NCBI GenBank assembly: GCA_035489815.1
Contig: DATHJH010000032.1
Location: 32,301 to 96,300, forward strand
DNA length: 64,000 nucleotides
DNA from: Candidatus Limnocylindria bacterium
GTDB lineage: Bacteria; Patescibacteriota; Saccharimonadia; Saccharimonadales; JAGQNK01
Direction: 5' to 3'
A program made the translations under genes and the position numbers. Below the pieces are notes generated by a model. That model searched no databases, was not told the DNA's origin, and saw only the letters and a program-made list of their open reading frames with translations. Positions 3,663-62,497 of this stretch are shown piece by piece (the stretch's first letter is position 1; every line of letters starts with the position of its first letter).

Positions 3663-5018
3663 ATGTCAAAAGATTCACTGGCGGAAATATTTAAAGCATA
3701 TGACATCCGCGGCAAGGTCGGATCGCAGCTAACACCGGAAACAGTGGAGCGCATTGGTGCCGTATTCGGCGACTGGTTGCCTACAGAAGGCGTGGTAGCG
3801 GTGGGACATGACATGCGCCCGGACTCTGCCGAACTGGCACAGGCGCTTATCAAGGGCATTACAGTAACTGGCCGGGATGTTATGGATGTTGGCCAGGTGA
3901 CAAGTGACATGAGCTATTTTGCCGTTGGCAAATACAACCTGGCCGGGGCTGCCATGGTCACCGCCAGCCACAACCCGGGTGCCGACAACGGGATAAAACT
4001 CTACCGGGATCAGGTTATCGCTGTGGGCTTGGATGCCGGGTTAGACCAGATCCGCGACAGGGTACTTACAGATTACGCGCCAAAAACCGCCGCACAGCCC
4101 GGTCAAGTCACGGCAAAGGATATTACAGAGGACTGGCTTGCCCATGTTATGAGCTTTGTGCCGGATCCGGCCAAACTCAAGCCGTACAAAATGGCCGTGG
4201 ACGCCGGCAACGGTATGGCAGGTAAAATATTCCCGGAACTTGAACCCTATGTCCCGTTTGAAGTGACCGAACTGTACTTTGACCTGGACGGCACCTTCCC
4301 TAATCATGAGGCCAATCCGCAAAAGCCGGAAAATATGCAGGACCTCATCAAGACAGTCCAGGAAAACAAGCTGGACTTTGGCATTGCCTTTGATGGTGAC
4401 GGTGACCGCGCCGGGTTTGTGGATGACAAGGGCCGGATTGTGTCCGGAAGTGACCTGATCAGCATTGTTGCCCGGGAGTATTTGAAGAAGTACCCTGGGG
4501 CAGAAATAGTGCACGAGGTCCGCACCAGCCGGGCCACCCAGGAACTCGTCCGCGAATGGGGCGGCACACCCTTTAGAACCAAAGCCGGACGGGTCAGCAT
4601 CGGCACTGTCATGCGCGAACACGACGCCCCATTTGGCGGCGAGACAACCGGACACCTGTTTTTTAAGGAAAACTATTACGCCGACTCTGGCCTGATTGGC
4701 GCGATGATGGTCATCGTCGCCCTGCAGGCAGCTGGTAAAAAATTGTCGCAACTGGTGGACGAATACCACAGATATGCCACTATGCCAGAGGTAAATTTTG
4801 AAGTAGCTGATAAGGACGGAGCGTTAAAACGCCTGGCTCAGGCCTTTTCCAACGACACCCAGGATACCCTTGACGGGCTAACGGTGAATTTTGATGACGG
4901 TTGGTTTAATATCCGCGCCAGCAACACCGAACCAGTCATGCGCCTCAACGCCGAGGCCGGGACCCAGGCCCGCCTCGACGAGCTCGTTGCAAAAGTCACA
5001 CACCTAATCCAGGACTAG
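3663..5018 (+). CDS. manB: phosphomannomutase/phosphoglucomutase (alpha-D-phosphohexomutase family)
   Basis: 451 aa. FKAYDIRG N-terminus, catalytic TASHNPGADNG loop, metal-binding FDGDGDR. AAGGAG RBS upstream. Confidence 0.85.
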   Translation: MSKDSLAEIFKAYDIRGKVGSQLTPETVERIGAVFGDWLPTEGVVAVGHDMRPDSAELAQALIKGITVTGRDVMDVGQVTSDMSYFAVGKYNLAGAAMVTASHNPGADNGIKLYRDQVIAVGLDAGLDQIRDRVLTDYAPKTAAQPGQVTAKDITEDWLAHVMSFVPDPAKLKPYKMAVDAGNGMAGKIFPELEPYVPFEVTELYFDLDGTFPNHEANPQKPENMQDLIKTVQENKLDFGIAFDGDGDRAGFVDDKGRIVSGSDLISIVAREYLKKYPGAEIVHEVRTSRATQELVREWGGTPFRTKAGRVSIGTVMREHDAPFGGETTGHLFFKENYYADSGLIGAMMVIVALQAAGKKLSQLVDEYHRYATMPEVNFEVADKDGALKRLAQAFSNDTQDTLDGLTVNFDDGWFNIRASNTEPVMRLNAEAGTQARLDELVAKVTHLIQD

Positions 5019-6169: not shown

Positions 6170-7282
6170 ATGAATATAACCTTCTTTGGAACATACGACA
6201 CCAGCAACACCCCCCGGGTTCAAGCCCTCATTGACGGTATGCGCGCCCATGACCACAAGGTGACAGAATGCAACGCACCGCTCAAGGTCAACACCGCCTC
6301 CCGGGTAGCCATCATGCAACAGCCTTGGCGCTTGCCACTGCTGGGTGGGCACATCCTCCGCTGCTGGGTTCGTCTGATCGGAAAATCGCGACACCTTCCA
6401 CCAACTGATTTGGTGATAGTGGGACACTTGGGGCAGTTCGATATTCAGCTGGCGCATCTGCTGTTTAGAAAAAAACCTATTGCTCTAGACTACATGATCT
6501 CCGGCACCGAAACGGCCAACGACCGCGGGGCTAAAGGCGGACTCAAGACAAAAGTCCTCGGCTGGCTGGACCAGGCAGCCCTCAAAAAATCCGCCATTAT
6601 CATAGTAGATACTGAAGAACACCGCCTAGACCTACCCGGGCACCACCGATCCAAGGGTGTAGTCGTAAACGTCGGCGCCCCGCCCTCCTGGTTTGAGGCG
6701 GGCGAGGCAGAGGCCAAACGCAAAGTAACCAAACCCATTAGCATCGCCTTTTTCGGCAACTACATCCCCCTGCAGGGCGCCCCAATCATTGCCGAGGCCA
6801 CCCGCTCTATGCAATCTCCCGTCACCATAACCATGGTCGGCCCCCACGGCCAGGACTTTGCCAAAGCCCAGGCCGCCGCTCGGCCTGCCAAAGGCCCAGC
6901 CACCATCAAGTGGGTCGACCATTGGGTGCCCATAGACGAACTGCCCGCACTTATGGCTCAGCACGATGTGTGCCTGGGTGTCTTTGGTACCAGCCCCAAA
7001 ACTTATAAAGTCGTACCTAACAAAGTCTACCAGTGCGCCGCTGCCGGCGGTGCCATTGTGACCTCCGACACGCCGTCACAGCGGCGGGTCTTTGGCGCGT
7101 CCGCCATCTACACACCCCCCGGCGACGCCCACGCCCTGGCCGACGCCCTGGACAAACTGGCCAACAACCCCAAAGAAGTGCAACGCCTCCGCGCAGCCGC
7201 TTTCACCCTCGCCAAAAAATCCTTCCGCCCCGAACAAATCATCCGCCCCTTCCTCAAAAAACTCGAAGAACAAGGTCTATGA
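6170..7282 (+). CDS. glycosyltransferase (GT-B, GT1/GT4-like)
   Basis: The ORF-track frame opens at 5930, but that extension overlaps rfbB and the hairpin element. The ATG at 6170 (MNITFFGTYD) is the first start after the element. The C-terminal half is GT-B-like. Confidence 0.6.
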   Translation: MNITFFGTYDTSNTPRVQALIDGMRAHDHKVTECNAPLKVNTASRVAIMQQPWRLPLLGGHILRCWVRLIGKSRHLPPTDLVIVGHLGQFDIQLAHLLFRKKPIALDYMISGTETANDRGAKGGLKTKVLGWLDQAALKKSAIIIVDTEEHRLDLPGHHRSKGVVVNVGAPPSWFEAGEAEAKRKVTKPISIAFFGNYIPLQGAPIIAEATRSMQSPVTITMVGPHGQDFAKAQAAARPAKGPATIKWVDHWVPIDELPALMAQHDVCLGVFGTSPKTYKVVPNKVYQCAAAGGAIVTSDTPSQRRVFGASAIYTPPGDAHALADALDKLANNPKEVQRLRAAAFTLAKKSFRPEQIIRPFLKKLEEQGL

Positions 7283-7818
7283 GACAACTCGATCAACAAA
7301 AGTTCTGCGGCTGGTGTGGCGGCATGGTAACTTACCCTTCAAAATGGCAATCAGTCTGTAGCACATGCGGATACAAGCAATACCAAAACCCTTTACCATG
7401 CAGCAGCGCTCTTATTATCTGTGGCGATGAAGTACTAATACTCCAGCGGTCTATAGAACCAGGAAAGGGGAAGTTTGACCTCCCGGGCGGTTTTATGGAC
7501 ATGACAGACAAGTCCATAGAGGCAGCCGCTTACCGAGAACTGCACGAAGAATTGGGAATAAAACAGCGTATGATAACCCAGGTTACTTATTTTGGATCGG
7601 GCATACAGCCATACGAGTGGCAAGGAACAGAGCTACTCACAGCGCCCTGTTACTTTACCTGCCACATAACCACCAAGGACCGCGCCCGGCTTGTCGTTGA
7701 CCCCAAAGAGGGCTCTCAGGTACGCTGGGTAAGTCGGGCCGACGTACCGACCGTAGACTTTGCCTTTGATTTGGATAAGGAAATGCTTACCAGTTATTTT
7801 AGTAATAAAACACCTTAG
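7279..7818 (+). CDS. NUDIX hydrolase with N-terminal zinc ribbon
   Basis: Nudix box GGFMDMTDKSIEAAAYRELHEELGI. CGWCGG...CSTCG Cys4 ribbon. The start ATG overlaps the upstream stop (ATGA). Confidence 0.8.
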   Translation: MRQLDQQKFCGWCGGMVTYPSKWQSVCSTCGYKQYQNPLPCSSALIICGDEVLILQRSIEPGKGKFDLPGGFMDMTDKSIEAAAYRELHEELGIKQRMITQVTYFGSGIQPYEWQGTELLTAPCYFTCHITTKDRARLVVDPKEGSQVRWVSRADVPTVDFAFDLDKEMLTSYFSNKTP

Positions 7819-7830
7819 GAGGGTTATAGC

Positions 7831-8406
7831 GTGCAGCTTATAAAGACGGACATCGACGGAGTATTACAGGCTCAGCCAGACATACACGGTGACGAGCGCG
7901 GTTTTTTCATAGAAACCTACCGGCGGCAGTGGTTTCCAAATGGACGGGAAATGATCCAGGGCAACCGCGGCGACCGTAAAGCTGGCTCCATTGTGGGCTT
8001 TCACTATCACCTGCACCAAGCAGATTACTGGTACGTTCCCTTTGGCTCCGCCCGCGTCATCCTGCATGATTTTCGCAAGGACTCACCAACGTTTGGCGTG
8101 ACAGCCACCTTTGACCTTGGCGCAGACCTGAAAAGTCCGGATGATCCAAAAAAGTTCAATCACAATGGCCTCTACATCCCGCCCGGGGTAGCCCATGGCT
8201 TTGCTGCATTGTCCGACATGACTATCACCTACCTCGTGGACGGCTACTATAATCCAGCAGATGAACTAGGCATTGCCTGGAACGATCCCGATGTTGGAGC
8301 CGATTGGGGATTGAAAGATCCCGTCGCATCTGACCGCGACAAAAAGAATCCATTGCGCAAAGATATTCCGATTGAGCTAAGACCGCACTTTAAACTCCGG
8401 GGGTAA
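7831..8406 (+). CDS. rfbC: dTDP-4-dehydrorhamnose 3,5-epimerase
   Basis: 191 aa, GTG start. GDERGFFIETY, FHYH...QADYWYV, cupin-type RmlC pattern. Confidence 0.85.
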   Translation: MQLIKTDIDGVLQAQPDIHGDERGFFIETYRRQWFPNGREMIQGNRGDRKAGSIVGFHYHLHQADYWYVPFGSARVILHDFRKDSPTFGVTATFDLGADLKSPDDPKKFNHNGLYIPPGVAHGFAALSDMTITYLVDGYYNPADELGIAWNDPDVGADWGLKDPVASDRDKKNPLRKDIPIELRPHFKLRG

Positions 8407-45415: not shown

Positions 45416-46798
45416 ATGCAAGACAGCCTGTGGCAAGCAGTACTGGGGGAGATAGAGCTGACGGTTTCCCGGGGTCATTACGTCACGTGGTTTAAAAATA
45501 CCCGGCTGCTCCGCCATCAGAACGACACGCTCGTCATAGGCGTTCAGAATGTCTTTGTAAAACAACAACTGGAACGCAAGTTCAATCAGCTCATAACCGA
45601 TACTTTAGAAAAAAACGGTGTAAAGCCGGAACACATCGAATACAAGATAGACTCTGGTATGGCTCAATCCCGAAAGGCAGATGATGAACTTTCCGGGACC
45701 ACCGTGCTCAGGAATCCTGAAAAAAGGTCTGTCGTCCAGGCAGCCGGCAAGTCCAGCCGTACCACGCTCACCCACACTTACCGCCAGGGACTGAATACGA
45801 AATATACCTTCGACAGTTTCATAGTTGGCTCCGGCAACGAACTGGCTTATGCTGCCTGCCAGGCTATCGCTCAAAATCCGGGCAGCAAGTATAATCCCCT
45901 CTTTGTCTACGGCGGCGTTGGTATTGGCAAAACACACCTCATTCAGGCCGCGGGCAACGCCGTTATCGCCAGGAATCCTGCTGCTCATGTCGTCTATGTT
46001 TCCACGGAACAGTTTGTGCAGGAGTTTCTGGATGCTATCCGGTACAAGAAAAATACCGATTTTGCCGGCTTTTACCGGAGCGCCGATGTGCTGATTATCG
46101 ACGATATGCAGTTTATCGCCGGTAAGGAAAAGACGCAGGAAGAATTCTTTCACACCTTTAATGCCCTTCACCAGGCCAACAAACAGATCATTATCAGCAG
46201 TGACAAGCCGCCGAAAGACATCCCCACCCTGGAGGAACGGCTGCGCAGCCGGTTTGCCTGGGGCATGAGTATAGATATGCAGATCCCGGACTTTGAGACG
46301 CGCTGTGCTATTGTCCAGACCAAGGCCCACGAGCACGCCACTACCCTGCCCCCGCCAGTGGTAGAGTTCCTGGCTAACCTCATCCAGACCAATATCCGTG
46401 AACTGGAAGGCGCCCTGAACCAACTGCTGGCTTTTTGTGAAATGAGGGGGCTGGAACCCGAACTTACCTTAGCCACCAGCCTGTTGGGCACCAGCAAAAC
46501 CCGGCCCAAGCATTTAAGTGCCAAGCAGATTATTGAACGAACCGCCAAGCACTTCCAGATCCCCCTGGAGGAAATGCTGGGCCCAAAAAGAGACAAAGAC
46601 ATCGTCGTACCCCGCCAGGTGGCTATGTATATGCTGCGGAGCGAACTACACCTGAGCTTCCCAAAAATCGCCCGGGAACTGGGCCGCAAGGACCACACTA
46701 CCGCCATTCATTCCGTCGAAAAAATCACCAGGGAATCCGGCCTGGACCCGGTTATAAAAGCCGCCATCACCGAAATCAAGGAGCGTCTCTATGCTTAG
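45416..46798 (+). CDS. dnaA: chromosomal replication initiator protein DnaA
   Basis: 460 aa. Walker A GGVGIGKTHL, DDMQFIAGKE, C-terminal DNA-binding KDHTTAIHS. Confidence 0.95.
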   Translation: MQDSLWQAVLGEIELTVSRGHYVTWFKNTRLLRHQNDTLVIGVQNVFVKQQLERKFNQLITDTLEKNGVKPEHIEYKIDSGMAQSRKADDELSGTTVLRNPEKRSVVQAAGKSSRTTLTHTYRQGLNTKYTFDSFIVGSGNELAYAACQAIAQNPGSKYNPLFVYGGVGIGKTHLIQAAGNAVIARNPAAHVVYVSTEQFVQEFLDAIRYKKNTDFAGFYRSADVLIIDDMQFIAGKEKTQEEFFHTFNALHQANKQIIISSDKPPKDIPTLEERLRSRFAWGMSIDMQIPDFETRCAIVQTKAHEHATTLPPPVVEFLANLIQTNIRELEGALNQLLAFCEMRGLEPELTLATSLLGTSKTRPKHLSAKQIIERTAKHFQIPLEEMLGPKRDKDIVVPRQVAMYMLRSELHLSFPKIARELGRKDHTTAIHSVEKITRESGLDPVIKAAITEIKERLYA

Positions 46799-51807: not shown

Positions 51808-52611
51808 TCATCCCTCTGCCGGGCAGCCCTGGCCGCTGGTAAACTGCGTGAAATAGTTGGCGGCCTGGGTTTGGCGGCGTGGAACGGCCTGGCTCATCCG
51901 GCCGGGTATTTCGTAGTGCCGGGTAATGATTTCGCTGGCTGCCCGGGGGTCGGCGTCTGCTCCTAGTGCTGTAAGCGGGTCAAGCGTACTGTTTCTGTAA
52001 GGGCCGTTTAGTTCACGCCAGATTGCCTCCAGCTGGACGCTCCTGGTGCCTGGTGCCTGGCCGAGTTCGTCGGCGACTATCTGCAGCTGATCCTTCCTGC
52101 CCGGCGAGGTGAACTGTATAAGTCCATAGCCGCCCCCCAACTGGTCGCCGCCGCTTCGCCGCTCGCGGCTAATGTAGATACGACCGGCAGAGTCTTTATA
52201 CTGCACGGGCGGTATCTGGTCGTCCAGGCTGGTGGGCTGCCCGGCCCGGGATATTTCACCCCTTGAGTTTTGCCAGCTGTACTCAACCAGCCGGGGTTCA
52301 AAATGCGCTTCTTCTACCATGTTACCCAGGAAGCCAGCTGCCACCCCCGGCGCTAAGCTTCTGGTCTGGGTAAAGTAGTTCCATATCTCCTCGGCGGCGT
52401 TGCAGCCTTGCAGGGGTGCTCCGGCAGCCGGGTCGGTCTGTCTTTGGGCGTCTATGACCTCGTGATCAAAATGGCCGATTTCTTTGTCGAATATGGCTTT
52501 TTGTTCTCTGGACAGGGCTGCTACGGAAACAGCCGGAATAAACAGCTGGGCAACCAGGCCGGCCAACCCCAACCCTATCAAAAGTTTTGCTGCTACCTTG
52601 TGTCGTCTCAT
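51808..52611 (-). CDS. secreted peptidoglycan hydrolase candidate (phage-tail-lysozyme-like domain)
   Basis: The start at 52611 (MRRHKVAAKL) is preceded by an AGGAGG RBS. Signal anchor present. FLGNMVEEAHFEP and GGGYGLIQFTSPGRKDQL resemble the GN..ES...P / GiGl.QWT..R pattern. Confidence 0.6.
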   Translation of the reverse strand: MRRHKVAAKLLIGLGLAGLVAQLFIPAVSVAALSREQKAIFDKEIGHFDHEVIDAQRQTDPAAGAPLQGCNAAEEIWNYFTQTRSLAPGVAAGFLGNMVEEAHFEPRLVEYSWQNSRGEISRAGQPTSLDDQIPPVQYKDSAGRIYISRERRSGGDQLGGGYGLIQFTSPGRKDQLQIVADELGQAPGTRSVQLEAIWRELNGPYRNSTLDPLTALGADADPRAASEIITRHYEIPGRMSQAVPRRQTQAANYFTQFTSGQGCPAEG

Positions 52612-52612
52612 A

Positions 52613-55366
52613 TTATCCTCCTGACGTGGACCAGTGCCACGATTCACTCGGCAGATTACTCAGCCCGAACCGGGCGGCGTTAGCCACCAGCCAGTTCCAG
52701 CCCGCGTCGCCGCGCCGGACTGTACCGCCGTTTAGCGTAAAGTCTATGGCCAGCCCGCGTTCGTGCATTGATTTTCCCGGTATGGCCGTTGGTATACGGC
52801 AAGTGCTTGGGCTGGCAGTCCAGACGTCCCGGCAGCCATTCTGGGTGCGCAGCCGTATCTGGTCGGCCGTATCGCGCCAGCCCCCGCCGGCCAGATTTAC
52901 GCCCGCCGCATGGGCCTCGGTGAGCAGCTGATCAATGCGGCCGCCAATGCACCGGTGCACCCGAACGCCTTGTACCACGACAGTTTCGGACTCGGGAACG
53001 GGTGCTTGCGGGCAGCCGCCGGCGTCGAGTGCAGGGCTGCCGGCAGGGGTCACCACTTCGCTGTCGGCCTGGCCGTACAGCTGGTCGCAGGCCCCTTCAT
53101 CCAACCCTTCATAACAGTCCAGGGCAAGCACGTTAAGGGTGTAGGCGAGGTAATAACGGTAGCGTAGTACTTCTTCCCTGCCTCTGTCTGCGTGGCACTT
53201 TGCCGGAAGTTGGACAAGGTCGTCTTCTTCCCCGGCCTTGCTATAGCGCAGATTCCCTTCGCGGGTGATGGTCATGGCGTGGCAGTCATCGCCGTATTCG
53301 TTGTTTAAACGCTCCAATTCATCAGGGTGATCTTCAAAGTAATTGCCGACTTCAAAGGGGTTTTCAAACCGGGGGTCGTCTTGCTCTGCTTCGGTAAAGC
53401 CGACAGTAGCAAAACCGTAGTCATAGCCGTTGGCGTCCTGCGCGATTGCTCTGCTGCCGGCAAAGGGCGCGGCAATCGCGCTGCTTATAACATTCGGCAG
53501 CCGGGCAATTGTGGCGATGGCCTCTGTCCTGGTCCGCGGTACCTTCATGAGCGTCGTTGCGGCCAGCGAATCAGCGTTAAAAATGTTCAGGTAGCGTTCG
53601 TAAAGGCTGGCGTTGGCCAGGTCCTGCATTCTTTCTTCGGTCGCCAGTTGCCTGACAGCGCGCGCTTCTGTTGTGCTAAGTTCGCTGCCGCCGGTCATCC
53701 GCATTTGTTCACGGGCCGCCAGCGCATTGCCGACGTTTACGATGCCACCCCACATGGCGCCTTTGGCGGCGGTGCTGGCAATCTGGCTGGCGTAGCGGTC
53801 CCGCAGCCACTGGATCCACTCGTCCTTGGTTCGGCCAGTCGGGCTCAGTGCCAGGTTAATGGCGCCGTCCACCAGGCTCTGAACCCTCCCTACGCCGGGC
53901 AGGTTGTTAATAAAATCACCAGTTTCATTAATCAGATCGCAGGCATCTGGTCCAACGCCGACCCCCCCTATTTCGACCCTGGTCGTTATTCGGTCAACAG
54001 CATCTAGGAGCGCGGGTCTCTCCCTGGAGCCGGGCTTGAGCCCGTTTGCTGACAACAGGTCTACGCCGGCTGCCGCGCCATTGCCGCTGGCGGCCTGAAT
54101 GCCGGAGTCTGCCGCCCAGGAGGTGTCGGTTTCCTGGTCGTAGAAATGCTCGGCGTACACCCCCATTTCTTCAATACTCAGATCCTCAAAGCTCTTGATC
54201 TGGTCGCCCATAGCAACGGCGCCCAGGCCCATACGTATCATGGTCAGCTGGCTTTCCAGGTTCTGGGCGTCTATAGACTCGCTAAAGCCCTTGGCGGCAC
54301 ATACCAGGGCGACGGCCGCAGCCGGACCCCGGGCGGTCCGAAGAGCTGTGCTGAACTTTTGCCGCAGCCGGCCCAGGCGGGTCGTGTTAACGTCTATGTC
54401 TGCACCGCCGGTCCGGTGCCGGTTGGCTTCTTCGTCTCTGAGCTTTTCCTTCTCTTGCCGCCGCTGGTCGCGGCTTAGGGCAAATCTGTCCGCGGTTTGC
54501 CGGAAACGATTCCTGAACGGGTGGAATAAGCCATCGGTTCCACCACGTTTTATATGTAATCTTGCCCCCATCCAGGCACTGATCCGGTTGACTTTCAGCG
54601 CTTTGGTGGCTGCTCTGGTAATGCGATTCCGATCCCGAAACGGCATGTCCTGGGTTACGACACCTCTGGCACCATTTACCGGGTTACCGTCTATATCTAC
54701 AGCGCTCTGAAAAGAGCCGTTTACGTCTATATCCTGCGCTCGCATTCGATCAAGGGTAGGCTTAGCTTTTACCGGGTCAGTCACCTGAAAACCTATGCCG
54801 CGCTGTGTTCCCGCCTGATACAACGGCCTCATACCGTTGTCGCTGAAACGACTTGCCCAGCGGTCGGCCCGCTGGTTGCCCCAGAGCCCCATGCGCCCCC
54901 GGGCAGCTTTGCCGGCCAGGGCGTAGACCACGAACCGGCCTGAGAATTTGTCGCCAAGGCTTTCGGAGGGGCTGTGGTGAAAAATCTTCATAAACTGGGA
55001 GACCTGAAGGAACTGCAACGGCCCGGACGTAATGCCGCCAATGCCCAGAATGCCGCCTACCACAAGGCCCGCTATGCCGCCCGTCACGGCGGTGCGGCGG
55101 GTAAGCAGCCCCTTAATGCCCCTTGAGCGCGAACTGCCTCCTTTGCCGCCGGCCTGCTGCTGGTCGTTTGACTGCGGAGTGACTTCTCCTTCGCTGTTTA
55201 CAGCAAATACCCTATCTCTTTCGGTGTTGTCCGGGCTATCCGCTGCCTGCTGGTCGTTTGGCTGGGAGGTCGCTTCTCCGTCATTGTTTACACTAAACAC
55301 TCTGCCTCTTTCAGACTCGCCAGTGTCTGAGGTGTATCCGTTTTGCTGTGGTGGAGGTTGTGCCAT
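52613..55366 (-). CDS. 917-aa T4SS-associated membrane protein with C-terminal M15B (VanY-type) peptidase domain
   Basis: Disordered N-terminus with a 30-aa tandem repeat, a Gly-rich TM, a large central domain, and a C-terminal SMHERGLAIDF (SxHxxGxAxD) plus ESWHW zinc-peptidase signature. Confidence 0.7.
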   Translation of the reverse strand: MAQPPPQQNGYTSDTGESERGRVFSVNNDGEATSQPNDQQAADSPDNTERDRVFAVNSEGEVTPQSNDQQQAGGKGGSSRSRGIKGLLTRRTAVTGGIAGLVVGGILGIGGITSGPLQFLQVSQFMKIFHHSPSESLGDKFSGRFVVYALAGKAARGRMGLWGNQRADRWASRFSDNGMRPLYQAGTQRGIGFQVTDPVKAKPTLDRMRAQDIDVNGSFQSAVDIDGNPVNGARGVVTQDMPFRDRNRITRAATKALKVNRISAWMGARLHIKRGGTDGLFHPFRNRFRQTADRFALSRDQRRQEKEKLRDEEANRHRTGGADIDVNTTRLGRLRQKFSTALRTARGPAAAVALVCAAKGFSESIDAQNLESQLTMIRMGLGAVAMGDQIKSFEDLSIEEMGVYAEHFYDQETDTSWAADSGIQAASGNGAAAGVDLLSANGLKPGSRERPALLDAVDRITTRVEIGGVGVGPDACDLINETGDFINNLPGVGRVQSLVDGAINLALSPTGRTKDEWIQWLRDRYASQIASTAAKGAMWGGIVNVGNALAAREQMRMTGGSELSTTEARAVRQLATEERMQDLANASLYERYLNIFNADSLAATTLMKVPRTRTEAIATIARLPNVISSAIAAPFAGSRAIAQDANGYDYGFATVGFTEAEQDDPRFENPFEVGNYFEDHPDELERLNNEYGDDCHAMTITREGNLRYSKAGEEDDLVQLPAKCHADRGREEVLRYRYYLAYTLNVLALDCYEGLDEGACDQLYGQADSEVVTPAGSPALDAGGCPQAPVPESETVVVQGVRVHRCIGGRIDQLLTEAHAAGVNLAGGGWRDTADQIRLRTQNGCRDVWTASPSTCRIPTAIPGKSMHERGLAIDFTLNGGTVRRGDAGWNWLVANAARFGLSNLPSESWHWSTSGG

Positions 55367-55387: not shown

Positions 55388-57289
55388 TTATAACCCTGGA
55401 TACAGCCTATTGTTCAAGTCGATTGTGCCCTGCTGCCCGGCCAGTTCGCCCTGCGCCTCTATTTGGGCGACTTGCTCGGGGTTGGTGGTAATCAGGCCGG
55501 TCTCTGTCGGACTGGCGGCAATCTGAATGTGCACATGGTTCTGCCCGGCAAAGAACAGGCCTTGCCCTACCGGGAACTGGCTCAGACGTTTCTTTTCCTC
55601 GCTTGTAAGCTTAAAAACGCCTGCAAGGACATCTACAGCGGAAGTGGACTGCTTGAGCAGTATTTGCATAGAGGCGTTGGCGACAATCGCCCGGCCCATG
55701 CGGCTGCCCATAAAGTCTTCCACGTCCTGAGTTATGGTGGTGATTCCCAGGTTGTATTTGCGGGCGCGCTTGGCCAGCGAGAAGAGGAAGGTTGCCGAAT
55801 CTTCGTATTTCATAAGCTGCCAGGCCTCGTCCACTACCAGAATGCGCCGCTTTTTATCTGTCTTGGTCCGGTTCCAGATAAAGTTCAGGACAATGTACAT
55901 AGCTACCGGGCGGAGCTCGTCCTCCAGATCCCGGATGTTAAAGACCACCAGCTGGTTGTTAATGTCTATGTTGCTTTGCTGGCTGAATATGCCGGCAAAG
56001 GTTCCGGTGGTGTATTTGCGCAGCCGCTGGGCCAGCTGCGGCCCGGTGCCCCCCATGTGCAACAGCGTGTCGTACAGGTCGGAAATGGTCGGCGGCTGGG
56101 CGGTATGAGTCAGCGGGTCATTGGTAATGCCGGCCTTGGCATAGGTCTCGATCAGGGCAGAGTCCAGGTCGGCCTCTTCTACCGGGCTGAGCGCCGGGAT
56201 GGCTGTTGCCTGGCCGCCCATCATCTGGGTCTGGGCGCCGCCCATCATGAGCCGCAGCAGGCCATGCAGGGTAATGAGGTTGCTGCGCAGTGCGCTGTCG
56301 GCTTCATCAGTATCCACCACCTTTGGCAGGTCAAAGGGATTTATGCGTGTCGGTGAAGTCAGGCTCAACCGCACATAGGCGCCGCCGACGGCCTCGGCCA
56401 TGCGCTGGTATTCGTTTTCCGGGTCTATGATGAACACCTCGGTGCCGAACATCATGCTGCGAAGCGCCTCTAACTTGACGGTGAACGATTTACCGGCACC
56501 GGACTTGGCAAAAACCACGGAGTTGCCGTTTTCCAGAGAGAACCGGTCAAAAATGACCAGGCCGGAGTTGTGCATATTGATACCGTACAAAATGCCGTTA
56601 TCTTGCGTGAGGTCGGCACTGGTGAACGGAAAGCTGGTGCTGAGCGCGCCGGTGTTAAAGTTGCGGCGGATTTGCAGCTGGTCGCTAAACTGCGGCACGG
56701 TGCTGTTAAAGCCCTGTTCCTGTTGGGAGGTAGCCGGCTTGGAGTAAAGCAGCTGCTGCCCCAACAGGGATTCGACCTTGTGGGTGACAAACTCCAACTC
56801 GTCCTGTGATGAAGCGTACAGCGTAAAGTAAAAGCCAAAGCGGAAGAACCTTTCCTCGCCCACCTGCAGTTTGTCGCGCATTTCCTCGGCGTCCAGGATG
56901 GCCGCTTGCTTGCCCGGGTCGCGGACCCGGCCCTTTTCGGCGTCTATCTGGATACCGGCTTCCAGCTGCGAAACCTTTTTGCGCAGATTTTCCAGTACCA
57001 CCTGGCTTTCCACCGGGTAAATGAACAGTGACATATCTATGACCTCATCAAGATTGATCATAGGCGACAGCCAGCCGGTAAAGACCTGCCGGGGATAGCC
57101 ATACACATAGTAGGTACGAGCCAGCCGGGTACCCAGCTGAAAGTGCGTTGCCATATATTCCAAAGAAGCCGGTGCAATGAAATCGCGCAGCGCAGTGACG
57201 CCCTTCTGAAAGGCCGCCTGCACCTCCTGCTGTTCTGCCATACGTTGCTGTTGAGCTATGGCGACCGGGTCAAGCTGCTGTTTAGCCAC
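55388..57289 (-). CDS. virB4: VirB4-family T4SS ATPase (C-terminal two-thirds of a Gram-positive VirB4/PrgJ/TcpF-type protein)
   Basis: 633 aa. GTG start with a GGAAGGAG RBS. YYVYGYPRQVFTGWL, Walker A FAKSGAGKSFT, Walker B RRILVVDEAWQL. Confidence 0.9.
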   Translation of the reverse strand: MAKQQLDPVAIAQQQRMAEQQEVQAAFQKGVTALRDFIAPASLEYMATHFQLGTRLARTYYVYGYPRQVFTGWLSPMINLDEVIDMSLFIYPVESQVVLENLRKKVSQLEAGIQIDAEKGRVRDPGKQAAILDAEEMRDKLQVGEERFFRFGFYFTLYASSQDELEFVTHKVESLLGQQLLYSKPATSQQEQGFNSTVPQFSDQLQIRRNFNTGALSTSFPFTSADLTQDNGILYGINMHNSGLVIFDRFSLENGNSVVFAKSGAGKSFTVKLEALRSMMFGTEVFIIDPENEYQRMAEAVGGAYVRLSLTSPTRINPFDLPKVVDTDEADSALRSNLITLHGLLRLMMGGAQTQMMGGQATAIPALSPVEEADLDSALIETYAKAGITNDPLTHTAQPPTISDLYDTLLHMGGTGPQLAQRLRKYTTGTFAGIFSQQSNIDINNQLVVFNIRDLEDELRPVAMYIVLNFIWNRTKTDKKRRILVVDEAWQLMKYEDSATFLFSLAKRARKYNLGITTITQDVEDFMGSRMGRAIVANASMQILLKQSTSAVDVLAGVFKLTSEEKKRLSQFPVGQGLFFAGQNHVHIQIAASPTETGLITTNPEQVAQIEAQGELAGQQGTIDLNNRLYPGL

Positions 57290-57403
57290 GGAATGCTCCT
57301 TCCAGTCGCGAAGTCAGGAGTGCGGAGTCAGAAGAAAGGAGATCTAACCCCTTCGCACTTCGCACTTCTATCTTCTCACTCCTAAAAGGCGACAGCATTT
57401 TAC

Positions 57404-58381
57404 TCATTGGAGGGTCCTATCCAGGTTGGGCTGGGGCGCCAGGCCCTGGCCCTTGGTGACAACCGGCGCACTCAGATCATTAAAGTTCTTGAGCTGCTGG
57501 CGGGTGGCGGTATCGGGGTTGTAGGTGTCATAATACAGTTCAATTAATTCCTGTGTATCAAGCGGCAGGCCCTGTATGTTGCACTGCAGCAGGCCGGAGA
57601 GCACGGCTTGAACCCGGTTGCGCAGCTCATCTTTGGCGGTGTTGAGGTCCTGTTCGTTGATAACCACGTGCTGCTCTTGTTTACTAAAAAGGCCTTTAAG
57701 CCCGGAGAAAAAGTTTTTACTTTGTGTCAAAGCCTTTTGCACGTCAAGCGTTGGAAAATACGGGATGACCACATAGAACTTCTTGTCCATAATGTTCGTC
57801 TGGAGCGCCAGATTGTCCACAAAGCCCAAATAATCTTCCATCAGTAGCGCCAGCAGCATGTTGTCGTGTTCCTGGCGGATTTTGTCCAACTTTTCCAGAT
57901 ACGGCCGGATGTCTACCTTTTGCGAGCGGATAAATATTTGCACCGGGAAATACAGCGAGTTCAAAAATCCCTGGTAGGCATACTCAACCGCCTCGCGCTC
58001 TTCACCGCTCATCAGGTCAAAGTTTATGGACTTGACCATAACGACCGAACGGAAGGAACCGTCGTTCATGATGACAATGCCGTCGCGGATTTCTGCTATC
58101 TGGAGGGCGTTTTGCGTGCTGTTAGGGTTGCCTTTGGCTGCCGGCGGTTTTGTTTGTTGAGGGGGTTGGACTGCTGCCGGGGCCGTCTGTTGGTACGGAT
58201 TTGGAGGTTGTACGGGCGGCGCTGCATAAGGCGCCGGGTTGTAAGGAGCTGCCGCCGGAGCTTGCCCGGAGGGGGCAGCGTAAGGAGTACCGGGGCCGCC
58301 ACTGGCGGCTCCCATAGGTTGCTGAGGATTCATATCTGGATTCATAGGGTTTGTACTAAGGTCTCCCACCGGATGATTCAA
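57404..58381 (-). CDS. P/Q-rich protein carrying the extreme N-terminal VirB4-type domain (split VirB4, part 1)
   Basis: 325 aa. After ~95 aa of low complexity comes IAEIRDGIVIMNDGSFRSVVMVKSINFDLMSGEEREAVEYAYQGFLNSLYFPVQIFIRSQKVDI, the pattern that opens Tn916 Orf16/PrgJ-type VirB4 proteins. Confidence 0.65.
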   Translation of the reverse strand: MNHPVGDLSTNPMNPDMNPQQPMGAASGGPGTPYAAPSGQAPAAAPYNPAPYAAPPVQPPNPYQQTAPAAVQPPQQTKPPAAKGNPNSTQNALQIAEIRDGIVIMNDGSFRSVVMVKSINFDLMSGEEREAVEYAYQGFLNSLYFPVQIFIRSQKVDIRPYLEKLDKIRQEHDNMLLALLMEDYLGFVDNLALQTNIMDKKFYVVIPYFPTLDVQKALTQSKNFFSGLKGLFSKQEQHVVINEQDLNTAKDELRNRVQAVLSGLLQCNIQGLPLDTQELIELYYDTYNPDTATRQQLKNFNDLSAPVVTKGQGLAPQPNLDRTLQ

Positions 58382-58386
58382 GGGTT

Positions 58387-59589
58387 TTAGTGAAGGTTAA
58401 TCACCACTTCGCCATCTGACAGACCTTGCTCTTTAGGCTTTTTATTTGCCTGGCGGGCAATGGTTGCCACATCTAGATCATCATTGGTTGCAAGTCCAAT
58501 TATATCAGGGTCCGGGGCTTGTGTCACAGGCTGATCATAGGCTGGCGGGAGGGCCGGCTGAACAGGCATGGCCGCGGCTGCGCTGGCAGCCGCTTTGGCC
58601 TCTGCCTGTTGCTCTTCCAGGGTTTTGATGACCCGCATGTTGCCGTAGTTTTTCGGTGTCTTTTGTTCGGCGTGAATTTTTTCTAATAATTCCTCTTCTG
58701 TCAGGGGGCCGCCGGCCGGGGCAAGCGGCTTAAGCGGCATTCCCTGTGATTGCTGGATTGCTGCCGGGTCGGGCGTGACAATAGTGCTCCCCGGTGCGGC
58801 GGGGAGACTGCCTGGCCCCGGGGGTTGCATTGCCGGGCCGTTGCTGTTCAAAAACCAGTAGTCAGGCTGCGCTGGCGGCTGGCTTGCTTGGGGTTGACCA
58901 GGTACCGGGGTTGGTAACTGCACAGACAGCGGCTGCGGGTTTTTCATATTGCTGACAATTTGATCGCGGTGCGCTTTGGAAGAAGCGCTGATCATCCGGT
59001 CAAGGCTTTGTGCCGTCGGGTTGTTTTGTTCGTCCAGTATGTCGTCGGTGGCGGTCGTATCATCCGGGGCTGCTGCCGACATAGAGCTAATATCAATCAG
59101 CCGGTCAGAACCGGCGCCTGCAGCGGCAAGGGTCGGCGTGCTGAACAGAGCGGCATTGACATTTTTTATAGCCCAGCCCCGGCTGTCGATAGTGTTGGCC
59201 AGGGCCTCCAAACGCGAACGAACTTCCCCCTCGGACATATTTTTAGTCAGAATCTTTTCAATCTTTTTCGGTGCGGTAATGGTCACCAGATCTCTGGTGC
59301 CGCTCTGATTCCAGATTCGCTTTCGGGGCTTCAGGGCAAAACGGATCTTAGCCAACAGCCACGTTTCCGTCGGCTGTTCCCCGCCGAACGGTAGGGCCAA
59401 CAGACTAAAAAAGATCGTGTGCGGCAGCAACGGCAACACCAAAAACCAGGCTACAATAAACAGCCGAAAACCTACAAACAGCGAAACAGCAACAATTATA
59501 AGATAGACAAACTGCCGTATACCAAAAGGCCCGATCAGCTTATCCTCTGCCTCAATATCCTGAATAACCTTGTACGTCGCCATTAACAT
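58387..59589 (-). CDS. PrgI-family (VirB3-like) T4SS membrane protein with long Pro/Ala/Gln-rich C-terminal tail
   Basis: 400 aa. The N-terminus YKVIQDIEAEDKLIGPFGIRQFVYLIIVAVSL is followed by 2 TM helices, and the gene lies directly upstream of the VirB4 genes. Confidence 0.65.
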   Translation of the reverse strand: MLMATYKVIQDIEAEDKLIGPFGIRQFVYLIIVAVSLFVGFRLFIVAWFLVLPLLPHTIFFSLLALPFGGEQPTETWLLAKIRFALKPRKRIWNQSGTRDLVTITAPKKIEKILTKNMSEGEVRSRLEALANTIDSRGWAIKNVNAALFSTPTLAAAGAGSDRLIDISSMSAAAPDDTTATDDILDEQNNPTAQSLDRMISASSKAHRDQIVSNMKNPQPLSVQLPTPVPGQPQASQPPAQPDYWFLNSNGPAMQPPGPGSLPAAPGSTIVTPDPAAIQQSQGMPLKPLAPAGGPLTEEELLEKIHAEQKTPKNYGNMRVIKTLEEQQAEAKAAASAAAAMPVQPALPPAYDQPVTQAPDPDIIGLATNDDLDVATIARQANKKPKEQGLSDGEVVINLH

Positions 59590-59653: not shown

Positions 59654-60031
59654 CTATGACAAAAGAGTAACGTCAATGAGGCTACCGTAGTTTTTTGCCA
59701 GCTTGCCATCAAAAGTTACAAACTGCTTACAGTCACCCAATACCGCACAAGCCACCTGCAATGCGTCTTCAAAATCGTCATCCTGGCGGTTGGTGATAGC
59801 CCAGCGCAAGACCGGCGAGCCCATATCCGTTATCTTATAGCTCTGAATATCTTCCAGCAGATCGGCCAGCGTATGTTTTTCTTTTTGACCAAAATATACA
59901 TACAGATGCGCCGAAAGCGGAGATATACATGCTTGCTCAGCACGAACCAGAGCTGCTGCTGCAACCTCGGCCTTCCTGCGCCCCCGCAAAAGCACTTCCA
60001 GCAAAATGTTTGCGTCAAAACAGGTCTTCAT
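59654..60031 (-). CDS. PIN-domain toxin (VapC-like)
   Basis: 125 aa. CFDANILLEVL (Asp), DFEDALQVA, VTFDGKL. Confidence 0.75.
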   Translation of the reverse strand: MKTCFDANILLEVLLRGRRKAEVAAAALVRAEQACISPLSAHLYVYFGQKEKHTLADLLEDIQSYKITDMGSPVLRWAITNRQDDDFEDALQVACAVLGDCKQFVTFDGKLAKNYGSLIDVTLLS

Positions 60032-60036
60032 GCATG

Positions 60037-60450
60037 CTATCCGCGATATGGAGGCTTATGCTTTGGGTCCGTGTCAAGCATCTGATACCTGACTCTCAAA
60101 ACCCTGGTCCTGTCATCCTCCAGCTTGACTGGAGGATCCAGTAGAATAACAAGAATACTGGATTGTCTGGTCAAGCCAGACAATGACGAGGTTTTGAGAG
60201 TCAGGTTCTGATGATACAGCTCTTTGACGGATTTATTCGGATCAAATGCAGGCTTACTGCTTGTGCCCTTGCGGTTGGCAGTGCGGACAAGAAAGCGCTG
60301 GACTGCCTCGCGGCTACCGGGCGCAGTCTTCTTGGCGGACGGAACTTCCGGGGTAATAGTAAAAGCAGGCTTAGACCGATACGTCACCCGGATACGTTCC
60401 CCGGCCCTTGCCCGTGCAACAACCTTGTCCAGATTTGTCACACTATGCAA
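60037..60450 (-). CDS. Phd/YefM-like antitoxin ORF with an in-frame repeat-element insertion in its 3' third
   Basis: 137 aa. The N-terminus (VTNLDKVVARARAGERIRVTYRSKPAFTITP) is antitoxin-like. The codons covering 60087-60206 are the MITE-like element. The ORF ends 5 nt before the PIN gene. Confidence 0.55.
   Translation of the reverse strand: MHSVTNLDKVVARARAGERIRVTYRSKPAFTITPEVPSAKKTAPGSREAVQRFLVRTANRKGTSSKPAFDPNKSVKELYHQNLTLKTSSLSGLTRQSSILVILLDPPVKLEDDRTRVLRVRYQMLDTDPKHKPPYRG
60087..60206. mobile_element. family-2 MITE-like element, copy N
   Basis: 120 bp with perfect 17-bp terminal inverted repeats ACCTGACTCTCAAAACC / GGTTTTGAGAGTCAGGT. It is flanked directly by the 6-bp direct repeat TCTGAT (60081-60086 and 60207-60212). 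It has three internal hairpins. Confidence 0.8.
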
Positions 60451-60470
60451 TTAATGTTATATAGTAACTT

Positions 60471-61172
60471 ATGCATGAGTTTATAGAGCAGGCTACTGAA
60501 AGAAGGAGAATCTACGACCACAACCGGAATCAGGCCAAACTGTTAGAAACTCAGGACGTGCTTGAAAAGCAAAGAGCTTCAGAAGCACGCGAGAGGGAGT
60601 TGCAGGTTGCTGCCAGGTTCCAACCGCTTATTGCTGCTACCGTCAAGGAAGCTGCAAAAGATATTGCTCCCATATTGCCAGAAGCGACTGCCAATGTAGC
60701 TCTTTGGCGTCAACCTAAGCGTGTTGTGACCAAGAAGCTTGGAGTTGCCACATTACTTTTCGGTGTAAGTTATAGGGTGACCTATGAGGAGCAGGAGCCC
60801 AAACCGGCTTGGCTCATTAGGCGTCATATTGCCTCACCAAGAGGTATTGGCTTTGGCCCTTACTTCGGAAGTATTCCTGATTTCCCTCAACACGAGATTG
60901 AAGAAACGGGACTCGTGGTGGACGGGACCGGCCAATTATTAACTTATGAAATTTGCCATGGCACCGGTAACGTTTCTGATTATGAAGTACGCAGAACATA
61001 CCAGAAGCTCAGTAGTTCACCGTCCAGTCCTTTTACGGCTGCAAGCTATCGGCCAGCTACTGATGCGGAAATTGCTCCTCTGGGCAGTATTACACCCCAT
61101 ACGGATGTCAACGGTGTACCGATTGACATATCGATGTGGCGTAATCGACTACTGTCCCTAATTCCTGCGTAG
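60471..61172 (+). CDS. hypothetical protein
   Basis: 233-aa ORF on the opposite strand to the T4SS cluster, with lower GC. No motif recognised. Confidence 0.5.
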   Translation: MHEFIEQATERRRIYDHNRNQAKLLETQDVLEKQRASEARERELQVAARFQPLIAATVKEAAKDIAPILPEATANVALWRQPKRVVTKKLGVATLLFGVSYRVTYEEQEPKPAWLIRRHIASPRGIGFGPYFGSIPDFPQHEIEETGLVVDGTGQLLTYEICHGTGNVSDYEVRRTYQKLSSSPSSPFTAASYRPATDAEIAPLGSITPHTDVNGVPIDISMWRNRLLSLIPA

Positions 61173-61351: not shown

Positions 61352-62497
61352 TTACTTCACGCGCGGTGATGCTTGATCGACTTCGTCGCCAGGGATTATG
61401 GTAATAATCGGCCCCCTATGTGGCTTACCAGAAACTGCTGCGCCCTGCTGAGCCAGCCTATTCAGTTCGTCGTCTTCCGTATGGTACAGTTTATCAAATT
61501 GACTTACCAATCTTGCTCTGGAAGAATCTGTTATGCCCGAGTCAAACTCTTCCATGGGTATACTCAACTGGGATGAGAGGAATCCCCGAACTGCATTTTG
61601 TTCCATCATAGTGCGAAAGGCTCCCGCGTCAAATGCCTGAGCTGTCTCCGCGGCCTTATCGGCTGCTGCCTTGGTTAGTGGGTTGACCTGGTCTCTAATG
61701 CCTTGCTTGATGCGTAGGATTTGTGCAGGGTCAAAGCCGTTTTGAGGAGTTTCCGCTCCTTGTTCGTGTCCGTTGGGGTAGAGTTCGTTATGCGGAGTGG
61801 GGGCGTCCTCAACACGGATAACAGTTGCCCGCCCCGTACTGCCAGTTTCTTTAGGATACCCCAATTGCTCTTCGCCGTTCGTAAGCATATGCTGGCGTTC
61901 TTGGTATTCTCTCTCAACTTTTCTTATTGATTTTTGTGTTGTATGAGGATGGTCTCTAAGCGATCCATTTTCATCTCGCCACAATGATTTTCCTGTTTCA
62001 GGGTCAATGTCGTAGACACCGTGCTGATCTACTGCCTGAGTAGCGCGGAGTGTGCCCAAAGTATCGCTTCGACGGAAGGCCTTTCGAGACCTTCGCCACT
62101 CCTTCCCTGAAGACGGCCAGCGGCCCTCCTCAAGGCTGTAGTTTTTGCGCTCTCGTGCAGCAGTATTCCAGTCAGGGCCCTCATAATCCTGGGTAGTTTT
62201 CTCCGGCTGCGTCCCGGGCCTGTCTCTGAGCTGCCGGCGCCGGAGTATGGCCCGAAGCCCGGTAACGGCTGTTGCTTCACCGGCCACTACTGCCGTAGGT
62301 TCCGTAGCCACTGCTATTTTATCTTGGTCGGTCTGAGGGCCGGCGTCAGCCCCGCTCTGCTGGCGGAGTTGATCTCTCAATGCGTCTGCTTCTGGTGAAG
62401 GTGCCTTGTTACCAACGTCCCAATACTCTCCATAAGCACCCAGGTCTGGTTCTGCGGAAGTTGGACGAAGATTTTTTTCGCTTCTTCTTTCTGACAT
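61352..62497 (-). CDS. hypothetical, largely disordered charged protein
   Basis: 381-aa ORF, rich in R/E/D/Q/G. No motif recognised. Confidence 0.5.
   Translation of the reverse strand: MSERRSEKNLRPTSAEPDLGAYGEYWDVGNKAPSPEADALRDQLRQQSGADAGPQTDQDKIAVATEPTAVVAGEATAVTGLRAILRRRQLRDRPGTQPEKTTQDYEGPDWNTAARERKNYSLEEGRWPSSGKEWRRSRKAFRRSDTLGTLRATQAVDQHGVYDIDPETGKSLWRDENGSLRDHPHTTQKSIRKVEREYQERQHMLTNGEEQLGYPKETGSTGRATVIRVEDAPTPHNELYPNGHEQGAETPQNGFDPAQILRIKQGIRDQVNPLTKAAADKAAETAQAFDAGAFRTMMEQNAVRGFLSSQLSIPMEEFDSGITDSSRARLVSQFDKLYHTEDDELNRLAQQGAAVSGKPHRGPIITIIPGDEVDQASPRVK

Follow-up and report, generated by a model that had tools for sequence, protein, structure and literature searches.

MITEs derived from insertion sequences (IS) of the IS982 family have been described in Cardinium, where MITECca01 and MITECca02 originate from the IS982-family element ISCca4 (PMC9769881). 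In-frame gene fusions caused by intragenic MITEs are not unusual either, with the RPEs representing the extreme case (reviewed in PMC10969869). Given these two reports, an earlier note on the locus described here, written from the sequence alone, overstated matters when it called the in-frame insertion of a MITE-like element into an antitoxin gene a rare snapshot of element mobility. In our full-text literature search, no paper combined Saccharibacteria with MITEs, and IS982 and Saccharibacteria were mentioned together only in an unrelated Francisella study. Saccharibacteria are a lineage of the CPR/Patescibacteria, with genomes of about 1 Mb.

The window analyzed here, that is, the whole 64-kb stretch of DNA under study, contains a 120-bp element that splits in frame the gene for a Phd/YefM-type (VapB-like) antitoxin, just upstream of the gene for its PIN-domain partner. 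We are highly confident that the element is a MITE with IS982-family ends that was inserted, presumably after mobilization in trans, into a VapB-like antitoxin gene. As such, it is a textbook example rather than a new type of element, and it does not reveal a new mechanism.

Anatomy of the element and its insertion site

The element (60087-60206) is non-autonomous, without an ORF of its own, and is bounded by two 17-bp terminal inverted repeats, ACCTGACTCTCAAAACC on the left (60087-60103, plus strand) and its exact reverse complement on the right (60190-60206, minus strand; 17 of 17 bp). Each repeat is directly abutted by one copy of the 6-bp target-site duplication TCTGAT (60081-60086 and 60207-60212). 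A search of the 64-kb window for ACCTGACTCTCAAAACC, with up to three mismatches allowed, returned these two matches only, compared with a chance expectation of 0.19 estimated from shuffles. Three hairpins occupy the interior: hairpin 1 (60115-60137), with the 9-bp stem ATCCTCCAG/CTGGAGGAT (60115-60123/60129-60137) and the loop CTTGA; the central hairpin (60138-60161), with the 6-bp stem CCAGTA/TACTGG (60138-60143/60156-60161) and a 12-nt loop; and hairpin 3 (60162-60184), with the 9-bp stem ATTGTCTGG/CCAGACAAT (60162-60170/60176-60184) and the loop TCAAG. This is the layout given in the earlier note, and all its coordinates, for the 120-bp element, the perfect 17-bp repeats, the three hairpins and the TCTGAT copies on both sides, were confirmed.

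The predicted fold of the 120 nucleotides consists of an 18-bp closing stem and the three hairpins, at -66.4 kcal/mol for RNA (z = -8.7 against shuffles) and -38.3 kcal/mol for DNA (z = -9.9), values that were matched by no shuffle in either case. Hairpins 1 and 3 are mirror copies that have the loop (CTTGA/TCAAG) in common and differ at four stem positions, with the pairing kept, and a related MITE (L069, 979-1100) retains the loop on a third stem, ATGCCGGG/CCCGGCAT. Judging by these sequences, the retained loop and the compensated stem changes may reflect selection for the hairpin structure. The very stable fold (z about -9), the two 9-bp hairpins with a common loop and four base pairs changed on both sides, and the relative that keeps this loop on another stem could also indicate a functional structured RNA (a small RNA, a ribozyme or a regulatory hairpin) or a MITE co-opted as one, which might, for example, provide an RNase III or other processing site that uncouples the expression of toxin and antitoxin. 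We consider such a function very unlikely to explain the element, because the structure follows from the palindromic build that is common to MITEs, whereas the presence of the element is accounted for by the signatures of mobility. Furthermore, no Rfam family was recognized in the region at E-values up to 10 (the best match, WsnRNA46, scored 22.4 bits against a gathering score of 65.3), a search of the whole window at the gathering scores yielded nothing credible, and a promoter and terminator scan of the element detected no promoter-like or terminator-like site.

The MITE makes up codons 82-121 of the 137-aa antitoxin ORF (60037-60450, minus strand). Together with one copy of the target-site duplication, it comprises 126 nt, that is, 42 stop-free codons that are translated as NLTLKTSSLSGLTRQSSILVILLDPPVKLEDDRTRVLRVRYQ; with this length and no stop in this orientation and frame, the ORF gains 42 residues. 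The earlier note was thus right that the frame remains open through the element inside a Phd/YefM-like ORF beside a PIN partner. A protein search with the 137-aa query retrieved the window's own NCBI protein (134 aa, annotated with a GTG start) and 31 homologs, nearly all of which are ~101 aa long (range 96-118). In about 20 intact orthologous antitoxins (~101 aa), exactly the 42 residues are missing, with the alignment gap located between KELYH(E/Q) and MLD(N/T). The 42-aa segment is present in no antitoxin homolog, according to both the alignment and the protein search among 5.8 billion clusters; its occurrence in unrelated antitoxins, which the earlier note had named as the observation that would speak against an insertion, was accordingly not seen.

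Excision of 60087-60212 in silico yields ...KELYHQMLDTDPKHKPPYRG, to be compared with the ortholog consensus ...KELYHEMLDNDPKYKPPYH, and restores the KELYH(Q/E)MLD motif exactly. The excised ORF aligns with intact homologs across the site and on to the C-terminus, but not end to end, the outcome for which the earlier note had proposed to test, because the ATG and the first ~11 residues are missing (see below). In DNA alignments, two syntenic loci (L125 and L126) have the target site only once and leave a clean gap of 126 nt opposite the insertion. The element therefore combines the features by which MITEs are recognized: a length below ~300 bp, no transposase ORF, terminal inverted repeats, and a target-site duplication, the corresponding site being empty in relatives.

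In the AlphaFold model of an intact ortholog (pLDDT 82), strands span residues 2-5, 26-30 and 33-38, and helices span residues 6-11, 13-21, 53-69 and 81-91. The insertion point, between residues 87 and 88 in the ortholog numbering, lies in the middle of the last helix, which bears the most conserved C-terminal motif (K82, E83, L84, Y85, H86, L89, D90, K94 and Y95). By analogy with the general architecture of VapB and Phd antitoxins, the split helix is presumed to be the toxin-binding segment, and the insertion may affect toxin neutralization. In the model of the window antitoxin, the insert is predicted with low confidence (pLDDT < 50 for residues 95-111). Conceivably, the extra residues could represent a native, lineage-specific insertion or domain of the antitoxin, with the inverted repeats being incidental, as the open frame and the conserved flanking codons might suggest. 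We give this reading practically no credence. The segment is absent from the homologs among the 5.8 billion protein clusters, the identical 120 bp occur elsewhere in non-coding DNA (see below), and the segment comes with a target duplication, ends identical to those of an IS and low model confidence; the empty sites in the orthologs, along with the second copy, refute a native origin.

The open frame as such is unremarkable, because two of the six combinations of frame and orientation are stop-free. Stops are present in the other four frames of the element, no ORF starts inside it, and the stop-free frame is frame 2 only, in both orientations, which gives a chance of ~1/3. Survivorship may plausibly contribute, in that selection would be expected to remove insertions that truncate an antitoxin encoded upstream of an active toxin.

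Between them, independent contigs of two sequencing runs cover both junctions, so that the insertion is not an assembly chimera. One Logan contig (L001, from SRR7026476) covers the PIN-side junction with 31 nt of the element, another (L129, from SRR7026477) covers the opposite junction with 29 nt, and a further contig from SRR7026476 (L130) matches L129 with an identical layout in the other run. Arguably, misassembly, with a repeat erroneously placed in the antitoxin gene, could account for the facts that only one long assembly covers the full span and that the short-read Logan contigs end inside the element. Short-read graph assemblies stop at repeated sequence, however, and the contig ends, which lie 29-31 nt into the element on either side, are as expected of a repeat. 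Given the independent contigs of two runs, and given that an assembler would not make a 6-bp duplication whose excision restores the ortholog sequence, the probability of an artefact appears to be negligible.

The MITE family and its parental insertion sequence

A second copy of the MITE, identical to that in the window at 120 of 120 positions, is located at 3764-3883 of L092 (contig Ga0193742_1000106), where it is intergenic, between obg and the next gene, and is flanked by the target-site duplication GGATAG. The contig has nothing in common with the window besides the element. The GC content (53.5% in the L092 contig and 52.6% in the window) and the tetranucleotide profiles (r = 0.939 between the two, compared with r = 0.934 between the two halves of the window) suggest that this contig probably comes from the same genome as the window or from a very close one. 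Thus, a search for further copies, which the earlier note had suggested, uncovered several, of which this one is 100% identical and occupies a different site. The same 57-kb contig carries three MITE-like elements within ~4 kb (the L092 copy at 3764-3883, 6511-6593 and 7818-7884); these three MITEs along with an IS end at the contig terminus constitute a high density for a small genome. The 64-kb window itself contains no transposase gene and no second element.

When the genome collection was scanned with both ends of the element, a single other element was found, in a Candidatus Saccharibacteria MAG from groundwater (L002, 4559-4681). This 123-bp element has the same ends as the window MITE but an unrelated interior that forms one long hairpin; it is flanked by ATAGTA/ATAGAA, an imperfect duplication with the copies one base apart, and lies ~380 bp downstream of a gene for a XerC/D-like recombinase. 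Among viral contigs, the 16-mer end produced six single-end matches, in which the partner repeat is absent and which were taken as chance occurrences.

In the metagenome collection, the 17-mer end was found at no fewer than 116 loci (a lower bound: at least 116), and the ends were then paired. Among the matches listed, this yielded ~20 other MITE-sized elements, 56-196 bp long, with common ends and heterogeneous interiors. An exact duplication of 6 or 7 bp is present in 8 of the 10 MITEs with a detectable target-site duplication among the matches listed: 6 bp in L052 (TAACTC), L084 (AGAACA), L092 (GGATAG), L111 (AAATAA), L118 (GATTAA) and L119 (CTAAAT), and 7 bp in L017 (TAAATGA) and L080 (ACTAATC). 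The remaining two duplications span 3 bp (L039) and 8 bp (L108). The duplications are mostly 6-7 bp long in the MITEs and 4-7 bp long in the related IS, and the 6 bp in the window accordingly fit the family.

To our knowledge, the RPEs show a strong in-frame insertion bias and have no known transposase. That the window element belongs to an RPE-like palindromic family, as in Rickettsia, selected for in-frame insertion and for the donation of peptides to host proteins, would be compatible with its in-frame location in a coding gene, with the openness of frame 2 in both orientations and with the reduced host genome. Nevertheless, this appears highly improbable, because, by chance alone, the frame would stay open in about one third of insertions into genes (two of six combinations), the identical copy is intergenic, and the element has classical terminal inverted repeats, a target-site duplication and a cognate transposase. 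Moreover, of the 21 related elements among the matches listed, no more than one (L023) is located within a long open frame; the others are mostly intergenic. The L023 element (1072-1212) is a 141-bp MITE with one open frame, preceded by 51 and followed by 52 open codons, and may represent a second in-frame gene insertion.

Also among the matches listed are 12 elements of 908-938 bp that have the terminal inverted repeats of the MITE and each contain one intact 273-aa ORF. The 17-19-bp ends of the window MITE are identical to the ends of these IS (ACCTGAC...GTCAGGT), so that the matching autonomous transposon, for which a search had likewise been suggested, was found and belongs to the IS982 family. 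The IS ORF scores 150.2 and 133.8 bits against the NCBIfam model NF033520 'IS982 family transposase' (cutoff 130), remains far under the cutoffs of other IS5/IS4 models, and matches Pfam DDE_Tnp_1_3 (1e-30). The candidate motifs for the DDE triad in the 273-aa ORF are FMDSTML, GDGGY and IECxFDYLKE, with FMDSTML being the sole invariant one in the transposase alignment, which took in a truncated copy. The nearest annotated plasmid relatives of the transposase all belong to the IS982 family, at no more than 30% identity. Among the 1497 homolog clusters, those that are named are 'IS982 family transposase [Candidatus Saccharimonadales bacterium]'; IS of this kind are already annotated as IS982-family in Saccharimonadales MAGs. 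The exact transposase of one of the IS, that in L096, is absent from the protein collection, where the best match is 86% identical.

Elements of the IS982 family, as classified in ISfinder, typically have target-site duplications of 3-9 bp and ends starting with ACC. Among the 13 IS copies considered (the 12 full-length ones and the truncated L027), 4 have an exact duplication, of 7 bp in L015 and L078, 6 bp in L074 and 4 bp in L024. No exact duplication was detected in the other 9, which may reflect chimeric assembly across repeats. The contig with the identical MITE copy, Ga0193742_1000106, starts with 126 nt of the right end of the IS (L034, 1-126), and three more contigs from the same metagenome (L029, L035 and L065) end in the left or right IS end, all four ends being 100% identical to the 925-bp IS in L096. 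Hence, a multi-copy autonomous IS coexists with the MITE in the metagenome of L092, and it is likely that copies of this IS are present in the same genome as the window.

The empty sites in the orthologs, the second copy and the ends in common with IS982-family IS bear out the interpretation of the element as a MITE. From the identity of the ends, we infer that an IS982-family transposase mobilized it in trans. Under this scenario, the transposase would be supplied by a full-length IS (~915-925 bp, with a 273-aa DDE transposase) located elsewhere in the genome; it would recognize the 17-19-bp ends and insert the MITE through a staggered cut, and repair of the cut would duplicate 6 bp of the target, TCTGAT, at codon 87/88 of the conserved gene for a VapB-like antitoxin with the Phd/YefM fold. 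As a result, the most conserved, C-terminal helix of the antitoxin would be split in its middle by 42 additional residues. The insertion is recent: neither the repeats nor the duplication contain a mismatch, and the second copy does not differ from the first at any position. A simple origin of the MITE by internal deletion of the IS was considered and rejected, given that the interior of the element shows no similarity to the IS beyond ~19 nt.

A more far-reaching interpretation, which we deem improbable albeit worth spelling out, is that soil Saccharibacteria harbor an active, undescribed burst of IS982-derived MITEs, that the subfamily with the CTTGA loop, which includes the window element, is under structural selection, and that the in-frame copy is tolerated or even functional. 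A burst is suggested by the many subfamilies that have one and the same 17-bp end and by the co-occurrence of three MITEs and an IS end on the 57-kb contig. If this were the case, the CTTGA-loop hairpins would be a selected DNA or RNA structure, for instance, a site for a host factor or the transposase, or else an RNase III substrate able to shift the toxin:antitoxin balance.

The toxin-antitoxin pair and its genomic context

Independently of the MITE, the antitoxin gene is already damaged, as indicated by the lack of the ancestral start and ~11 residues. All orthologs start with the ancestral ATG and ~11 residues (MKTITAKELRD) that the window antitoxin has lost: at the 5' end of the gene (60438-60470, minus strand), the corresponding DNA (ATA TAA C..) contains small indels along with in-frame stops. 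A TTGAC motif upstream of the antitoxin gene, conserved in L125 and L126, is also gone from the window. Because the N-terminus is missing, the window antitoxin reaches only 13-14 bits for PF02604, below the gathering score of 29.8, whether the insert is included or removed; PF02604 is present in the orthologs, which are 64-65% identical to the window antitoxin. Thus, by orthology, the window antitoxin is classified as a damaged member of the Phd/YefM type. The ortholog profile matches Mycobacterium tuberculosis VapB46 (6jqy, E = 2.5e-4), 3dbo and Phd over residues 1-40, which implies a VapBC-like module with an antitoxin of the Phd/YefM fold.

The gene for the PIN-domain (VapC-like) toxin (59654-60031, minus strand) is recognized by Pfam PF01850 (35.5 bits, cutoff 23.6) and apparently intact: identity with the two ortholog toxins amounts to 62% and 59%, and the acidic residues D6, E12, D86, E88, D89 and D108 are invariant between the window protein and the orthologs, so that, judging by conservation, the toxin looks intact. 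In the orthologs, the antitoxin and toxin genes overlap as ATGA; in the window, the toxin ATG is located ~9 extra bp (TAGCATGCA, 60032-60040) past the antitoxin stop, and translational coupling is therefore probably lost here. The locus may be decaying, or else the shortened antitoxin may still neutralize the toxin.

The pair (59654-60450), along with 55388-59589, lies inside a type IV secretion cluster (TrbL...antitoxin, PIN, PrgI, TraC-like, VirB4-like). In L125 and L126, the gene order is the same as in the window: TrbL comes first, followed by variable genes, the antitoxin (101 aa), the PIN protein (125/127 aa), PrgI and a TraC-like protein. The retention of this position in divergent Saccharibacteria suggests that the pair is a stable part of the cluster rather than a stray addiction cassette. 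In the window, Pfam searches assign to the type IV secretion cluster a VirB4-like gene, PrgI and a gene with a lysozyme domain, and a precomputed Pfam match on the Logan contig adds the TraC-like gene. The gene with the lysozyme domain encodes a phage-tail-lysozyme-domain protein (51808-52647, minus strand) and is accompanied in the cluster by a gene whose 917-aa product has a VanY peptidase domain at its C-terminus (52613-55366, minus strand); these two proteins presumably serve the type IV apparatus as cell-wall hydrolases. Two ORFs, at 60471-61172 (plus strand, 233 aa) and 61352-62497 (minus strand, 381 aa), neither of which produced a Pfam match, fill the stretch that separates TrbL from the toxin-antitoxin pair; the 233-aa ORF starts 21 bp from the start of the truncated antitoxin. 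The corresponding stretch contains a 403-aa ORF and a methyltransferase gene in L125 and a PemK-like fragment in L126. The 381-aa ORF and its 403-aa positional counterpart in L125 are unrelated, which indicates that the region between TrbL and the pair is variable.

A segment at 45.4-50 kb of the window contains dnaA, dnaN and recF. All named relatives of the encoded DnaA (45416-46798), which are 77-79% identical to it, come from Candidatus Saccharibacteria. The public record is labeled Candidatus Limnocylindria (Chloroflexota), in contrast to these DnaA relatives and to the PrgI, TraC-like and VirB4 gene content, which fits Saccharibacteria; the label is probably a binning error, that is, the contig was mis-binned.

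Comparison with known systems

The locus amounts to a fully documented MITE insertion, with a target-site duplication, empty sites, an identical copy and a parental IS, in a bacterium of the candidate phyla radiation. It shows that IS982-type elements are active in the small genomes of Saccharibacteria, where they fragment assemblies and reshape genes, and the natural in-frame insertion in the presumed toxin-binding helix could serve to test how much change this segment tolerates.

With M. tuberculosis VapBC46 and VapBC5, the pair has in common the Phd/YefM-fold antitoxin, as judged by the ortholog profile, and the PIN partner. It differs from these systems in that the window antitoxin lacks the N-terminal strand and helix, has the MITE in helix 4 and is followed by 9 extra bp before the toxin start. 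As a palindromic repeat of ~100-150 bp that can insert in frame and thereby add a peptide, the element resembles RPEs, ERIC, BOX and Correia elements (PMC10969869); unlike the RPEs, the MITE family of the window shows no in-frame bias among the matches listed and has clear terminal inverted repeats, target-site duplications and a cognate IS.

The parental IS conforms to the IS982 family in its length of ~0.9 kb, its single ORF for a DDE transposase that scores above the NF033520 cutoff, and its target-site duplications, which are within the range of the family. Its ACC ends are also found in ISAba4, an IS982-family element that, in a plasmid record, starts with ACCCGAATT..., ends with ...GGGGT and is flanked by an 8-bp duplication. 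At 908-938 bp, the parental IS is slightly shorter than the ~1 kb typical of the family, and the window element is a non-autonomous derivative only. A close parallel is provided by MITECca01 and MITECca02 of Cardinium, which are likewise short and non-autonomous, have terminal inverted repeats in common with a coexisting intact IS982-family IS, and occur in a reduced-genome, host-dependent bacterium. The Cardinium MITEs are ~240 bp long and keep short subterminal sequences derived from the IS, whereas the window MITE, at 120 bp, has an interior unrelated to the IS beyond ~19 nt, belongs to a host from a different phylum, the Saccharibacteria, and is inserted in frame in a gene.
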